24,907 nucleotides of DNA from an uncultured bacterium (GCA_967755155.1 CBRAFF010000001.1:1-24907); one strand, 5' to 3'; shown: positions 1 to 3,967, counted from the stretch's first letter. Notes: a model not told the origin generated them from the letters alone. Program-made: numbers and translations.

Positions 1-192
1 CCAGGTGATGAGCAGGGTGCCGGCCGCGGTCGAGCCGTCGGCGCGATAGATGACGTCGCTGATGGTGGTGGTCGCCGGCGGCGTCTGCGGCGGTGGCGCG
101 CCGCGGGAAACACCCACGGCCACCAGTACCGAGATCAGGCAATAAAAAAGCCGCCCCGCAGGGCGGCCCGGATGGAGGTTCAGTCGTCTCAT
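1..192 (-). CDS. 5' part of a probable secreted protein (continues off the window)
   Basis: Read by hand from ATG at 192, open to base 1: MRRLNLHPGRPAGRLFYCLISVLVAVGVSRGAPPPQTPPATTTISDVIYRADGSTAAGTLLITW. Basic N-region, hydrophobic core, then a Pro/Thr linker. Not in the ORF track. Confidence 0.7.
   Translation of the reverse strand, partial: MRRLNLHPGRPAGRLFYCLISVLVAVGVSRGAPPPQTPPATTTISDVIYRADGSTAAGTLLITW
144..167 (-). terminator. Intrinsic terminator-like hairpin inside the 5' end of the CDS at 1-192
   Basis: Minus strand GCCGCCC-TGCG-GGGCGGC-TTTTTT: perfect 7-bp stem, 4-nt loop, U6 tract. Confidence 0.7.
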
Positions 193-305
193 TTGCTTTC
201 GTGCGAGAAAGGCTTTCGGATTCGAGGTCTTACCGTTGGGCGGACGTGTAGAAGCGGGGTTTCCCTGTTGCGTTCCTGCGAAAAGAGGCTGCGAGGGGCG
301 AGGCG

Positions 306-758
306 TTATTTCTGAGCGGCGGCGTAGGAGCGCATGAAGTCCTCCACGCTGCGCACGTACACGTGGGCGAAATCGGCGGCGTAGCGCCGCGTCTGGATGA
401 GGGTGCAAGCGTCGTTCAGCTCCCAGCCCTGGGCGCGCAGCACCGCCAGCGCCATCATGGGAGCGCGGTGCACGCCGGCCGCGCAGTGGATGAGGATCTT
501 CGACCGGTCCTGCTCCAGCGCCGTGAGCGCGAAGTCCACGCCCCGCTGGAAGAGTTCCGGAGGCTTGGGCTGGAAGTCGTCGTCCACCGGGTTCCACAGC
601 ACTTCAATGCCGTGAGGCTCGGCCAGGGGCGTGTCGTCGAACTCGATCTGCATGTCGATGACGTGGGTGATGCCGGCGCGGGCTACTTCCGCCATGCGCA
701 CCGCGTTCCAGATGCCCCCGCCGACCGCGATGCGGCCGGTGACCCAGCTCATGTCCAT
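306..758 (-). CDS. Dual-specificity / PTP-superfamily phosphatase
   Basis: P-loop HCAAGVHR (HCxxGxxR), upstream acid loop PVDDD, GITHVID motif; 150 aa. Confidence 0.88.
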   Translation of the reverse strand: MDMSWVTGRIAVGGGIWNAVRMAEVARAGITHVIDMQIEFDDTPLAEPHGIEVLWNPVDDDFQPKPPELFQRGVDFALTALEQDRSKILIHCAAGVHRAPMMALAVLRAQGWELNDACTLIQTRRYAADFAHVYVRSVEDFMRSYAAAQK

Positions 759-806
759 GAGTGCGTCCCGTGCGGAGCCATGGAACAGCCTCCGCGCGAA
801 GAAATG

Positions 807-1154
807 TCATTCTACAGGACGCTCGTCCTCCGCCGCCGCCGTTTCCTTCGCCATCTGGTCCACCGTTTCCAGGAACAGACGGGCCAGCGAGGGCTGCTCC
901 GCCTCGGACTCGGACTCGGACGGCAGCGAGGCCGCGGAGATCCCGGCAAAGTCGAACAACAGCTTGGCGTGCAGATGGCTGCCCTCCGCGGCCTTGCCGA
1001 TCATCGCCTGCACGATGGTTCCCAGGTTCCTGAACACCGCGGCCACCGCCTCGCGCGTGGCCTGCTGTGGTGAGCAAGGCTCCTGCGCGGGCGCGGGCGG
1101 GTGGTACTTGCCGTTTCCCGGCTGGTACTTGCCGTTTTTGGGCTGCTGGGCCAT
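807..1154 (-). CDS. Hypothetical protein, possibly terminase-small-subunit-like
   Basis: 115 aa with helical core IVQAMIGKAAEGSHLHAKLLFDFAGI and a 21-nt-period duplication (KNGKYQP/GNGKYHP; 15-mer at 1102-1116 and 1123-1137). The functional call rests only on position and weak resemblance. Confidence 0.6.
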   Translation of the reverse strand: MAQQPKNGKYQPGNGKYHPPAPAQEPCSPQQATREAVAAVFRNLGTIVQAMIGKAAEGSHLHAKLLFDFAGISAASLPSESESEAEQPSLARLFLETVDQMAKETAAAEDERPVE

Positions 1155-1174
1155 GAGAGGGCGAATGCCGATCC

Positions 1175-1203
1175 AAAAAGATGGGGCGCGACCGGCGCGC
1201 CCC
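1175..1203 (-). terminator. Terminator-like hairpin upstream of the 115-aa gene
   Basis: Minus strand GGGGCGCG-CCGGT-CGCGCCCC-ATC-TTTTT. The U tract is offset by 3 nt, so it is imperfect. Confidence 0.45.
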
Positions 1204-1234
1204 GCATGATTCCACTTTTTCCCTACTTAAGTTA

Positions 1235-1243
1235 AGGATAGCA
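1235..1243 (-). promoter_or_regulatory. Candidate extended -10 promoter element
   Basis: Minus strand TGCTATCCT fits TGnTAnnnT in an AT-rich patch; no clear -35. Confidence 0.3.
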
Positions 1244-1280
1244 GTTCGCCAGGGGGGAGAGGGCCACCTTGCGCCGAACT

Positions 1281-1754
1281 CTATTTCCTTTCCCCACAGC
1301 GCTTTGCGTGGTTTCCACCGTCTTCGCCCTCTTGACACGGCAAAGGACGCAGCAGTTCCGCCTCCAGGAACAGCTCGCTCAACCGGTCGAGCGCCCTGGG
1401 ATAGCGCCGCACCACGGTGCGGCGCCCGCAGCCTAGCAGCCCCGCCGTTTCCTCCAGCGTGTAGTCCTGGAAGACGATGCGGGCGATGAGCTGCTGCCCC
1501 AGCGGATCCAGCCGCGCCAGGCAGCTCTCGGTGTCGTGGACGAAGATGACCGCGTCCTCGAAGGTGTGCATGCGGTAGGAGGTCACGCGCGAGCGGAAGA
1601 ACTCGCGCCCCACCAACGAGGGCAGCCGCCCCAGCTCGATGGACATGCGGAAGTAGCGCCGCAGCAGCGCCCGCGTGCGGTCGCGGTAGAGGTGCAGGTC
1701 CTGAGCAGCGATGGCGGCTGCAGCGGAAGCTGAGGAGGAGGACGAAGGCTTCAT
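1281..1754 (-). CDS. Sigma-70 region-4-like HTH transcriptional regulator
   Basis: ATG at 1754 preceded by GGAGGTG; 157 aa. C-terminal QDYTLEETAGLLGCGRRTVVRRYPRALDRL fits a sigma region-4-type HTH. The ORF-track extension to 2021 is probably spurious. Confidence 0.72.
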   Translation of the reverse strand: MKPSSSSSASAAAAIAAQDLHLYRDRTRALLRRYFRMSIELGRLPSLVGREFFRSRVTSYRMHTFEDAVIFVHDTESCLARLDPLGQQLIARIVFQDYTLEETAGLLGCGRRTVVRRYPRALDRLSELFLEAELLRPLPCQEGEDGGNHAKRCGERK

Positions 1755-1924
1755 GCGCACCTCCCCGCATCCGCAGACGAGGCCGGCGCCATTTCTGCCC
1801 AGCGGCGCGCGCAGCCCTCGCAGTAGATGGCCTGGCTGCCCGCCGGCCGCAGCCGGATGGCGCCGCAGCCTTCGCAGTATTTGGGTTCCAGTGTGGTGAA
1901 AAGGGCGGGAGAAGATTCCTGCAT
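1751..1924 (-). CDS. Small zinc-ribbon protein (57 aa), absent from the ORF track
   Basis: AGGAGG-N6-ATG; MQESSPALFTTLEPKYCEGCGAIRLRPAGSQAIYCEGCARRWAEMAPASSADAGRCA. Two CxxC motifs; the TGA overlaps the next ATG (ATGA). Confidence 0.75.
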   Translation of the reverse strand: MQESSPALFTTLEPKYCEGCGAIRLRPAGSQAIYCEGCARRWAEMAPASSADAGRCA

Positions 1925-1964
1925 GGCAGACCTCCTGCGCCTTCCGGCGCGAAAGATGAAGCGG

Positions 1965-2052
1965 AAAACAAAAAAGCCCCACGTCGTCCCGCGGGTGTGT
2001 GATGGATGCCGGCGAGTACAACGGTCCGCAACCCGCGGGACGACGCCGGGCT
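1965..2052 (-). terminator. Long hairpin with U tract (terminator/attenuator candidate)
   Basis: Perfect 15-bp inverted repeat at 1982-1996 and 2031-2045, extended by AGCCC/GGGCT, with a 34-nt loop, then TTTTTGTTTT on the minus strand. Confidence 0.65.
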
Positions 2053-2091
2053 CGTTGGTGTTACGACGACCTGCTCGGGCTATTTAGTTAT

Positions 2092-2181
2092 TGAGCCATT
2101 TGGCCATCGGGTCATTGAGTCATTGAACGATCCCCGCAGCGGAGGTGAAATGACTCAATGGCCCGATGACTCAATGGCTCA
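2092..2181. repeat. 33-bp imperfect inverted repeat built from 8-nt units
   Basis: Arms 2092-2124 and 2149-2181 are 29/33 complementary; units TGAGCCAT/TTGGCCAT/CGGGTCAT/TGAGTCAT. Confidence 0.8.
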
Positions 2182-2182
2182 T

Positions 2183-2404
2183 TCACTCGATCATCCTCAC
2201 ATCCTTCCTCCGTGAGAAATATCCCTCCTCGTACCCGGATTTCAGCACCCGTCCGTTCTGCACCACCACGCTCAGGCGCCCGGTGAAGCGCAGCGCCAGC
2301 AGCAGGCGCTCGGTCGCGGCGGAGAGCACTTCCGACTCCCGCACTTTGCGGCGAAACTCCAGGAACTGCCGCTCGGCAGCGCCGGCTTCTTCTATCTCGG
2401 GCAT
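2183..2404 (-). CDS. Small hypothetical protein (73 aa), divergent from the repressor
   Basis: Lies downstream of a near-consensus promoter. LRFTGRLSVVVQNGRVLKSG loosely resembles DUF2292/YezD-type proteins; no HTH evident. Confidence 0.65.
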   Translation of the reverse strand: MPEIEEAGAAERQFLEFRRKVRESEVLSAATERLLLALRFTGRLSVVVQNGRVLKSGYEEGYFSRRKDVRMIE

Positions 2405-2454
2405 GAGGGCCTTTCCGAATCTGTGCTATACGGTATCATCTGTGTATATCTCTA

Positions 2455-2483
2455 CGTATAGACTCCGGCGCGCCCCTTGTCAA
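2455..2483 (-). promoter_or_regulatory. Sigma-70 promoter for the leftward operon
   Basis: Minus strand TTGACA-17 nt-TATACG. Confidence 0.6.
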
Positions 2484-2511
2484 GGACTTTATTCCCTTTG
2501 CGTTATTACAC

Positions 2512-2540
2512 TTGCATTCCTTATTGCCATTTGTTATAAA
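2512..2540 (+). promoter_or_regulatory. Sigma-70 promoter for the repressor (probably leaderless mRNA)
   Basis: TTGCAT-17 nt-TATAAA with extended TG; the ATG begins 6 nt after the -10; no SD. Confidence 0.6.
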
Positions 2541-2546
2541 CGGGAC

Positions 2547-3263
2547 ATGAAAGTCAAGGCCATGCAGGAGAACCTCCGCAAGCTGCTGTGGGGGCGCATT
2601 GAGGCGGGCGAACTCACCGGCCTCAGGCTGGCCCAGCAGACCGGCTTCAAGCAGGCTCACATCTCCAACTTCCTCAATCGCAAGCGCCAGCTGAGCATCG
2701 CCGGCATGGACAAGGTGCTCACGGTGCAGCACCTGTCGGCGCTCGACCTGCTCGACCCCGACGAGATCAACAAGCGCGCCAGCATCCTGCCCCCCAGCGA
2801 GGGCGACTTCGAGGACGTGCTGCTGGTGGAGGGCGAGGTGGCCGCCGGCGAGCCCCTCATCACCAACGAGAACGTGAAGGACATCCTCAAGTTCAAGAAA
2901 AGCTTCCTGGCGAAGCTGCGCGCCGAACCGGAGACGGTGCGCGACGACTGGCGCCGCTTCGTACTGGTGAAGGTGGACGCCCGCGACGGCATGAGCATGT
3001 ATCCCCGCCTGCTCCCCGGCTCCACCGTGTTGGTGGACCGCCACTACAACTCGCTCAAGCCCTACCACAAGGGCGAGCAGAACATGTACGCGGTGAAGAA
3101 GGAGGGCGGCTGCACGGTGAAGTACGTGGAACTGGCGGGCAAGAACCTGGTGCTGCGCCCCCACAACCAGGCCTATCCCGTGGACGTCCTGGCCATCGAG
3201 GAGGACAAGACCTTCGCCGACTACATCGTCGGCCGCGTCTGCCACGTGGCTATCGAGACCTGA
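2547..3263 (+). CDS. XRE-HTH / S24 peptidase repressor (phage CI-like, LexA-type autocleavage)
   Basis: HTH LTGLRLAQQTGFKQAHISNFLN; cleavage motif EVAAGEP (A100-G101); GMSMYP (S150); TVKY (K192). Alternative start at 2562. Confidence 0.88.
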   Translation: MKVKAMQENLRKLLWGRIEAGELTGLRLAQQTGFKQAHISNFLNRKRQLSIAGMDKVLTVQHLSALDLLDPDEINKRASILPPSEGDFEDVLLVEGEVAAGEPLITNENVKDILKFKKSFLAKLRAEPETVRDDWRRFVLVKVDARDGMSMYPRLLPGSTVLVDRHYNSLKPYHKGEQNMYAVKKEGGCTVKYVELAGKNLVLRPHNQAYPVDVLAIEEDKTFADYIVGRVCHVAIET

Positions 3264-3292
3264 GCGGGCGGGTAGCGCCGGCGGCAGCCAAT

Positions 3293-3320
3293 AAAAAACC
3301 GCGGCCGGAGCCGCGGTTTT
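3293..3320. terminator. Bidirectional intrinsic terminator
   Basis: AAAAAA-CCGCGGC-CGGA-GCCGCGG-TTTT between convergent genes. Confidence 0.85.
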
Positions 3321-3339: not shown

Positions 3340-3723
3340 TCAGCGGCGCCTTCGCCCGCCCTTCTTCTTCTTCGCGGCCTTCTTTTTTCCGCGCTTCTTT
3401 GCCGCCTTCTTGGGCCCGCGACGCGAGGACTTGGCCTTCTTCCCGCTCTTCTTCTTCTTCGCCGCTTTCTTCTTCTTCCCGGCTTTCCTCTTGGGGGCGG
3501 CCTTGCGCGCCGGGGCCGCAGGCTTGCTGCTCGTCGCCAGCCCGCTGCCGGGGACTGTGGTCATGGCCCCGCCGCGAGGGGTCACGGACGAAGGCTCGCC
3601 CCTCTCCTCCTCTTCTTCTTCTTCGTACTCCTCTTCCATGGAGTCATCGTAGGCGCCGATGTCGCCGTAGTCCTCCATGTCATCGTCGTTGCGGGCGTAG
3701 AGGGTCTTGTCGGGAACGCTCAT
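3340..3723 (-). CDS. Lys/Ala-rich histone-H1-like protein with an acidic N-terminus
   Basis: GGAGGAG SD before the ATG at 3723; 127 aa; D/E-rich first half and a KKKAAKKKK-type basic tail. Confidence 0.75.
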   Translation of the reverse strand: MSVPDKTLYARNDDDMEDYGDIGAYDDSMEEEYEEEEEEERGEPSSVTPRGGAMTTVPGSGLATSSKPAAPARKAAPKRKAGKKKKAAKKKKSGKKAKSSRRGPKKAAKKRGKKKAAKKKKGGRRRR

Positions 3724-3780
3724 ATCTCCTCCTGCGATCGCAGCCAGGCCCGCCGCTTCGCGGATGCCGGCCAAAAAGCC

Positions 3781-3939: not shown

Positions 3940-3967
3940 ATTATAGCAACCGCGCTTGGCCTGTCAA
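3940..3967 (-). promoter_or_regulatory. Near-consensus sigma-70 promoter with a GC-rich discriminator
   Basis: Minus strand TTGACA-16 nt (ending TGC)-TATAAT-CCGCGCC. Confidence 0.65.

Follow-up and report, generated by a model that had tools for sequence, protein, structure and literature searches.

Two kinds of phage-derived particle system are close to the locus described here. PBSX of Bacillus subtilis combines an Xre repressor and a sigma-like late factor, Xpf, with a defective DNA-packaging particle. In the gene transfer agent (GTA) of Caulobacter, GafYZ acts both by promoter activation and by read-through of a terminator that follows the first gene of the cluster (PMC11150451). Well-studied GTA-like elements come from the Alphaproteobacteria and a few other groups only; the Terriglobales (Acidobacteriota) are among the most abundant soil bacteria. 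Here we analyze a stretch of 24,907 nucleotides (nt) from an uncultured bacterium (GCA_967755155.1, CBRAFF010000001.1:1-24907; the window), which opens contig C1 of a metagenome-assembled genome, G000. Its first 3,320 nt hold a predicted self-cleaving CI/LexA-type repressor gene, rep, divergent from the small genes p73, Zn57, sig157, p115 and DSP (a dual-specificity phosphatase) and a truncated secreted open reading frame (ORF), with the intrinsic terminators T0, T1 and T2 among them and a putative late promoter, P_late (Table 1). With a probability of about 0.7, we read positions 1 to 3,320 as the orphaned, intact control arm of a vertically inherited particle locus of the Terriglobales, the structural part of which, some 20 kb, has been deleted in this lineage.

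The complete locus is found in relatives. The order of rep, p73, Zn57, sig157, DSP and the secreted-protein gene is repeated in every locus fetched, from at least 12 genera. In the complete genome G007, the genes beyond the fibre-like secreted protein encode a beta-helix/deacetylase protein, TerL (phrog_2, E 2.5e-27), a HipA_2-like protein, a DUF3037 protein, a portal (PF04860, E 1.3e-46), a scaffold-like protein with a coiled coil, a protein of 350 amino acids (aa) assigned by Atlas to the HK97/SU10 capsids (score 0.98), a head-tail adaptor (phrog_442, E 5.6e-10) and five more conserved proteins, and the series ends at a convergent gene for a 2-oxoacid dehydrogenase E2 (hereafter E2). Relatives of the portal profile occur in at least 572 species genomes, and among the 80 species loci kept from these matches for a survey of gene order, the genes present, from TerL through the last structural gene, g360, never depart from one order, and E2 abuts the cluster in 56. 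The survey also shows an unusual cargo in the head module: the HipA_2-like gene (61-77% identical between genera) and the DUF3037 gene, between TerL and portal (L021:2101-3773), are present in 71-73 of the 80 loci (L051-L130), four loci lacking both and one more lacking DUF3037 only. Of 24 genomes of the family, each from a different genus, 22 carry one copy of sig157, and a search of 16 genomes of the sister family found none. The portal was found in 29 of 41 sampled genomes of the family; these tallies, and that of 31 genomes for LexA below, take in the unpublished genomes G003 and G042, on which no claim rests solely.

A CI-like repressor and late control of a phage type might equally be expected of an ordinary inducible prophage, mobile and patchily distributed, and such a prophage is how the locus may have been filed so far: 26 fragments of it stand as viral contigs in IMG/VR, and the acidobacterial 'prophage clusters' of Eichorst et al. 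2018 (PMC5900883) may include it. We found no paper that describes the locus as host-owned, and single-protein scans of IMG/VR returned no relatives of rep or sig157. The distribution of the locus speaks strongly against mobility, however. No tyrosine integrase lies within 40 kb of it in five genomes, three of them closed; the same neighbour gene adjoins it in 56 species loci; it is present in single copy; no replication genes occur between rep and E2; and its GC content at third codon positions (GC3) is host-like. Identities of the portal (0.77) and capsid (0.81) are as high as that of E2 (0.76), and pairwise identities of portal and capsid track those of E2 across 34 species (Spearman rho 0.46-0.75, a descriptive figure, as the genomes are related). 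We therefore regard a prophage as extremely improbable. Because its gene order is fixed, E2 is its neighbour, integrase is absent and its divergence tracks that of E2, the locus is, to judge from these comparisons, a vertically inherited, phage-derived particle locus of the Terriglobales and not a prophage.

Because the window opens its contig, inside the first late gene, the sequence left of base 1 is absent from the assembly and nothing there can be read in G000; the fate of the structural genes is seen in its relatives. A look-up of the exact window phosphatase sequence returned contig L159, which is 100% identical to window positions 1-1000 and extends 229 nt past base 1. On it the secreted ORF ends after 76 codons, 12 codons beyond base 1, and an ORF of 116 aa comes next. 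The nearest relative with a long contig (L032/L033; sig157 88% identical, same right flank) shows the 76-aa stump, then a membrane ORF of 116 aa, then the E2 operon in convergent orientation, and G001, a 100% complete genome of the same genus, has p115, the phosphatase, the stump, the 116-aa ORF and then E2. Searches of G000, an assembly that is 69% complete, found no portal, TerL or capsid and no 116-aa ORF or E2; the capsid was likewise not found in G001, G002, G015, G017 and G018. Because L159, L032/L033 and G001 share the passage from stump to 116-aa ORF (with E2 next in L032 and G001) and the particle genes were not found, we conclude from these contigs that the structural block of about 20 kb was deleted once, in an ancestor of the window's lineage. 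Losses in G002, G015 and G017 are independent, with other breakpoints, and all three keep the arm and the phosphatase.

Two genomes offer snapshots of decay of the structural block: in G017 the last structural gene, a g360 homologue, alone is kept beside E2 (L026:7728), and in G014 the portal gene is in two pieces owing to a frameshift (C1:45359-46569). We note also that the window contig and contig L158 of the European Nucleotide Archive, which are independent assemblies, break at the same base, 12 codons before the stop of the stump; a repeat or strain variation may be the cause.

The sequence-only reading of the window had placed a domesticated particle or tail system immediately to its left, under the control of the cassette. 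Such a system does lie there in most related genera, and the G000 contig stops inside the first late gene with its left flank unseen. For the strain of L159, identical to the window over 1000 nt, it is contradicted by the end of the ORF at 76 aa, and in G001 and the nearest relative the stump leads to the 116-aa ORF and E2, portal, TerL and capsid not being found; we hold it to be very improbable in this genome. Since stump, 116-aa ORF and E2 follow one another and particle genes were not found, the lineage lacks phage-like structural genes downstream of the cassette, an absence that the sequence-only reading had itself named among its refuting conditions. The wider proposal of a domesticated, GTA-like control module stands for the family, because in related genera the cassette heads the genes for terminase, portal, capsid and adaptor, always at a single chromosomal position, and is not supported for this genome, from which the block has been deleted.

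The arm that was left behind appears to have been maintained. The window, L032/L033 and L158/L159 keep each of the six reading frames intact. Between the window and L032, both of which carry the deletion, the ratio of nonsynonymous to synonymous substitution rates (dN/dS) is 0.07 for p73, 0.10 for rep, 0.16 for DSP, 0.28 for sig157, 0.31 for Zn57 and 0.36 for p115, and 0.23 for the host gene encoding an SLT/LysM protein. The intact frames and low ratios suggest that a reduced circuit is still in use; because the particle genes are deleted, the switch would now control only a small phosphatase operon.

An alternative is that the cassette is a functionless relic that erodes neutrally, its intactness merely reflecting a recent loss. 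Insertion sequence (IS) elements in the arm of G012, G021 and G022, the host repeat inserted after p73, and a deletion in G001 that takes away p73, Zn57 and most of sig157 would all fit such erosion. Yet the frames are intact in the window, L032/L033 and L158/L159, dN/dS between two lineages with the same deletion is 0.07-0.36, like that of the housekeeping neighbour, even G001 keeps rep, p115 and DSP, and the arm and DSP survive at least three other independent deletions, so that we think a relic unlikely.

Several observations nevertheless weigh against our reading of positions 1 to 3,320. The 1.05-kb deletion of G001 (C118:5482-6356; L161) joins window position 2444 to 1387 and removes T0 as well as the three genes just named; because p73 to sig157 could be lost, a lineage without particle genes can evidently do without the early regulators, and decay of the arm is a possibility. 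The junction with E2 is inferred from G001 and L032 and is not seen in the window strain itself, whose genome is only 69% complete. The Ala-Gly site at which rep would be cleaved varies outside the window, other genera having AAD, AAS, AAC or AAT, and the repressor of G022 (L022:8256-8969) has lost both the catalytic Ser and the catalytic Lys (GMGM, SVRY); for these two reasons, RecA-type cleavage is not universal in the repressor family. The stems of T0 and T1 are kept mainly as sequence, with little covariation, and a look-up among sequencing runs listed no RNA run containing the stretch. In G001 the deletion leaves the early promoter and one operator arm facing P_late, p115 and DSP, with rep, p115 and the phosphatase kept: either the reduced circuit consists of rep controlling p115 and DSP, or the arm is in slow decay.

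Table 1. Features of the control arm at window positions 1 to 3,320, from left to right.
Feature	Coordinates	Strand	Basis or remark
Secreted signal-peptide ORF, codons 1-64 of the 76-codon stump of a tail-fibre-like giant	192..1	-	L159 continuation
T2, intrinsic terminator within signal-peptide codons 9-16	142..169	-	7-bp GC hairpin and U6
DSP, dual-specificity Cys-based protein phosphatase	758..306	-	PF00782, E 3e-13; HCAAGVHR (HCX5R)
DSP promoter-like element CCTGTAGAATGA at the p115 stop codon, with -10-like TAGAAT upstream of DSP	807..818	-	Conservation
p115, first gene after P_late-T1	1154..807	-	No Pfam, PHROG or NCBIfam match
T1, intrinsic terminator about 30-50 nt downstream of P_late	1175..1203	-	GC hairpin and U-run
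P_late: hexamer TGGCCC, 17 nt, extended -10 TGCTATCCT, conserved initial transcribed stretch	1235..1267	-	Position and conservation
sig157, sigma-region-4 domain and one long N-terminal helix	1754..1281	-	Sigma70_r4 PF04545, E 1.3e-6, residues 78-128 only
Zn57, zinc ribbon CxxC-x14-CxxC	1924..1751	-	Sequence reading; only sub-threshold Pfam matches
T0 leader and terminator	1964..2102	-	Same element in 13 loci of different genera
Host palindromic repeat after p73, like a repetitive extragenic palindrome (REP) or miniature inverted-repeat transposable element (MITE)	2086..2187	.	Self-complementary; copies elsewhere in the genome
p73, first early gene, in the position of Cro	2404..2183	-	No Pfam, PHROG or NCBIfam match
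Divergent control region: early promoter and rep promoter	2405..2546	.	Sequence reading
rep, 238-aa CI/LexA-type repressor, putative helix-turn-helix (HTH) and S24 self-cleaving domain	2547..3263	+	PF00717 (Peptidase_S24), E 4.9e-10; phrog_4 'transcriptional repressor', E 7e-14
Bidirectional terminator hairpin, common to rep and a convergent Lys-rich gene	3295..3320	.	Hairpin reading

The content of the arm, as first read from sequence alone, has held up in most respects. The listed genes (a repressor divergent from genes for a 73-aa protein, a zinc ribbon, a sigma-region-4-like HTH, a 115-aa protein, a phosphatase and a secreted protein) are all in place; rep does end at a terminator shared with a host-type gene; the cassette is host-like in codon style, with GC3 of 0.76-0.95 against 0.89-0.91 in neighbouring host genes; and no integrase or replication gene lies beside the repressor or elsewhere in the window. 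The 'five-gene series' is correct as to genes and order and mistaken as to a single uninterrupted operon, since intrinsic-terminator hairpins intervene after p73, after sig157 and within the early codons of the last ORF. Window proteins were scanned against Pfam, PHROGs and NCBIfam. To the right of rep, the ORFs with a Pfam match are all of host type (SLT/LysM, mltD-like; a Cys/Met pyridoxal-phosphate enzyme; a TonB-like outer-membrane protein; asparaginase; EF-Ts; and a molybdoenzyme), and three of the ten ORFs scanned there have no Pfam match. The gene convergent with rep (3340-3774, minus strand) encodes a protein of 144 aa, acidic in its N-terminal half and ending in a histone-H1-like tail rich in Lys and Ala; a promoter at 3940-3967 on the same strand, some 170 nt upstream of the gene, matches the sigma-70 consensus at 12/12 positions and has an extended -10.

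The linker of rep carries the predicted cleavage site VAA-GEP (Ala-Gly), identical to that of LexA, and its S24 domain has the catalytic Ser150 in GMSM and Lys192 in TVKY, a dyad kept in 10 of 11 orthologues. The phrog_4 match spans residues 5-213, and the N-terminus (residues 22-64) matches a HipB-type XRE HTH at E 0.003, with no Pfam HTH found at E 0.1. Identity of rep between genera is 60-93%. A canonical LexA is encoded elsewhere in 29 of 31 family genomes, and we have therefore rejected the idea that rep is this lineage's LexA, or master repressor of the SOS response. We note that in G012 and G021 (L025, L012) IS66 or IS1595 elements occupy the position of the repressor, that no repressor match was seen beside p73 in G056 (L040), and that an IS1595 lies between sig157 and the phosphatase in G022.

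Between rep and p73, the minus-strand early promoter combines a -35 of consensus sequence (TTGACA, 2483-2478) with a -10 of TATACG (2460-2455). It is overlapped by an inverted repeat, CTATACG-N22-CGTATAG (2426-2432 and 2455-2461), one arm of which contains the -10. The rep promoter has TTGCAT (2512-2517) and TATAAA (2535-2540) with a 17-nt spacer; because the TATAAA ends 6 nt before the ATG and there is no Shine-Dalgarno sequence, the rep mRNA is probably leaderless. Ten other loci have a palindrome, GCTATA-N14/15-TATAGC, at the same place together with the same TATAnT-N6-ATG arrangement.

The first early gene, p73, has 25 invariant residues across 13 genera. Atlas gives a weak lead to DUF2292 (YezD-like; 0.83), and an AlphaFold2 model, a helix and a beta-hairpin, is of low confidence (predicted local distance difference test score, pLDDT, 58) and too uncertain for a fold search. 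The host repeat that follows is about 100 nt long, with arms of 8-nt period (GTCATTGA-like), and is scattered through the genome, copies occurring in at least five other G000 contigs (C264, C395, C32, C87 and C4) and in G001; L032 has a similar palindromic repeat at the same spot after p73. Within the T0 leader, AACTAAATA (2089-2081) is followed by a small hairpin, TCGT-AACACCA-ACGA (2066-2052), and by a long GC hairpin with a U-run just upstream of Zn57. Across 13 loci the small hairpin has a 4-bp stem and a purine-rich 7-nt loop, its fourth, closing pair being T-A in eight sequences and C-G in five, and 95.8% of the cells in the alignment are paired. A CAGG upstream in T0 could pair with the CCTG of the 5' arm of the terminator, giving an attenuator-like alternative fold. 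No Rfam family was found for T0, T1 or T2, the only match being a sub-threshold one to sX6 at the rep terminator.

Zn57 and sig157 are coupled, the TGA of the former overlapping the ATG of the latter (ATGA), which points to translational coupling. Zn57 is syntenic in all loci, including those of a distant subclade without p73 and DSP. The AlphaFold2 model of sig157 (pLDDT 73) has a long helix at residues 17-40, a disordered linker and a four-helix domain at 65-131, whose best matches in the PDB are to sigma-4 of Mycobacterium tuberculosis SigL (template-modelling score 0.8-0.9 when normalized by target). Sigma region 2 has no Pfam match in sig157 and is not seen in the model, and a complete sigma factor of the extracytoplasmic-function type was thus rejected: the fold is that of sigma-4 only. 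We consider sig157 a candidate late activator or antiterminator, although no homology of p73, Zn57 or sig157 to N, Q or GafZ was found in Pfam, PHROGs or NCBIfam. In the distant subclade the arm consists of rep, Zn and sig only, with the late genes directly after, and because nothing else precedes the late genes there, the Zn-sig pair is the candidate for a core activator.

Of 12 loci, 10 have P_late directly after the sig157 stop, as do four distant genomes with repressors of just 35-40% identity. In other loci it consists of TGGCAC or TGTCCC, 17 nt, an extended -10 TGCTATTCT and a AAATTTAGAGA-like start, followed by a GC hairpin with a U-run and then the start of p115. A search of G000 for further copies of P_late returned the cassette as its sole match. 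The TGGCAC element is not a sigma-54 promoter, its spacing to any GC dinucleotide being wrong. At the position of T1, a GC hairpin with a U-run, differing in sequence, is found in all loci inspected.

The 115-aa protein is always encoded first after P_late and T1, and directly before TerL in G057. It keeps a K(L/Y)LF(D/E)xxG motif, and Atlas gives a lead (0.92) to viral DUF5681 clusters; our best guess is a small, TerS-like terminase protein. At its stop codon the element CCGTAGAATGA is conserved at the nucleotide level in 11 of 11 loci, one of them (G002) being without p115; in ten the aligned position is the same. The phosphatase is 62-72% identical between genera. Four loci (L012, L016, L026 and L027) carry tandem 8-mers (AGTTCTCA-like), in up to about 10 copies, in the spacer between phosphatase and fibre gene; the window and L032 are without them. 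Orthologues of the secreted protein keep an N-terminal domain of about 100 aa and are highly variable in length, intact ones having 1041-2210 aa and truncated ones no more than 392 aa, with weak tail-fibre, BppL_N and pectate-lyase signals. T2, in its signal-peptide codons, has 88% of cells paired in 17 genomes with four compensated pairs, which none of 500 shuffles reach, while the encoded residues differ. A start of this ORF downstream of T2, without the signal peptide, was rejected, the strong upstream Shine-Dalgarno sequence and ATG being conserved and the downstream starts not.

From these elements we propose how the arm may work. The CI-like repressor, made from its leaderless mRNA, would bind the palindromes (GCTATA...TATAGC) that cover the -10 of the early promoter until a RecA-type signal leads to self-cleavage at Ala-Gly; that the trigger is DNA damage is itself inferred. 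The early transcript would then yield p73 and would have to pass the T0 attenuator to express the coupled Zn57 and sig157, and these would act at P_late such that RNA polymerase reads through T1 and T2. The late genes can be reached only past both terminators: T1 follows P_late within about 50 nt, and T2 lies in the first codons of the next large gene. In complete loci the late transcript would comprise p115, the phosphatase, the exported fibre-like giant, TerL, portal, capsid and neck/tail genes; in the window's lineage it would reach only p115, the phosphatase, the 76-aa stump and the small membrane protein. A cascade of antitermination like that of lambda Q or GafYZ is suggested by the leaderless repressor, the operators, T0, T1 and T2 in series, and the conservation between genera of P_late right before T1.

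A more elaborate and more tentative version, which we put forward as possible without expecting it, is that the pair of a zinc ribbon and a sigma-4-only protein is a new type of promoter-loaded, processive antiterminator acting across T1 and T2, that T0 is a gate of its own under the control of p73 or of RNA, and that orphan lineages have exapted the CI-type switch to drive the Cys-phosphatase, as a second circuit that damage induces independently of LexA. In any case the window supplies the switch as a concrete, testable circuit: a self-cleaving CI-type repressor, its operators, three terminators, a sigma-4-only factor with a zinc-ribbon partner and a defined late promoter. The repeated loss of particle genes with retention of switch and phosphatase raises the question of what use remains for the switch.

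The locus would share its design with PBSX: a repressor, in our case with a putative HTH, that responds to DNA damage, an adjacent small sigma-like factor that turns on one long late operon, and a non-infectious, phage-derived particle fixed in the chromosome. Here, in contrast, the repressor has its own S24 domain, the factor is sigma-4 only and coupled to a zinc ribbon, and the cascade is gated by three terminators. The predicted particle has a capsid like those of SU10/HK97, and a tape-measure gene was not seen (not contractile); the searches run found no sequence homology to Xpf. With lambda (cI with PRM and PR, N-nut, and Q at PR'-tR') the locus shares divergent promoters, a probably leaderless repressor mRNA like that of cI from PRM, operators over the lytic promoter, a boxA/boxB-like conserved leader before T0 and a late promoter with an immediate terminator. 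Unlike lambda, it has no Cro-type HTH, no N or Q homologue in Pfam or PHROGs, and no replication or integration modules, and it is inherited with the host and not mobile. The alphaproteobacterial GTAs under the control of GafYZ or GafA (CcGTA and RcGTA; PMC11150451) differ in that their master control lies with host regulators of the RogA/CtrA type and not with a phage CI/LexA-type repressor, and in phylum; no GafY or GafZ homology was detected, and any DNA packaging and transfer by the locus described here is putative. What the locus has in common with them is a domesticated cluster of head and tail genes that has no integrase and keeps a fixed position, an activator gene outside the structural operon, a binding element at the cluster promoter and an early terminator to be bypassed.

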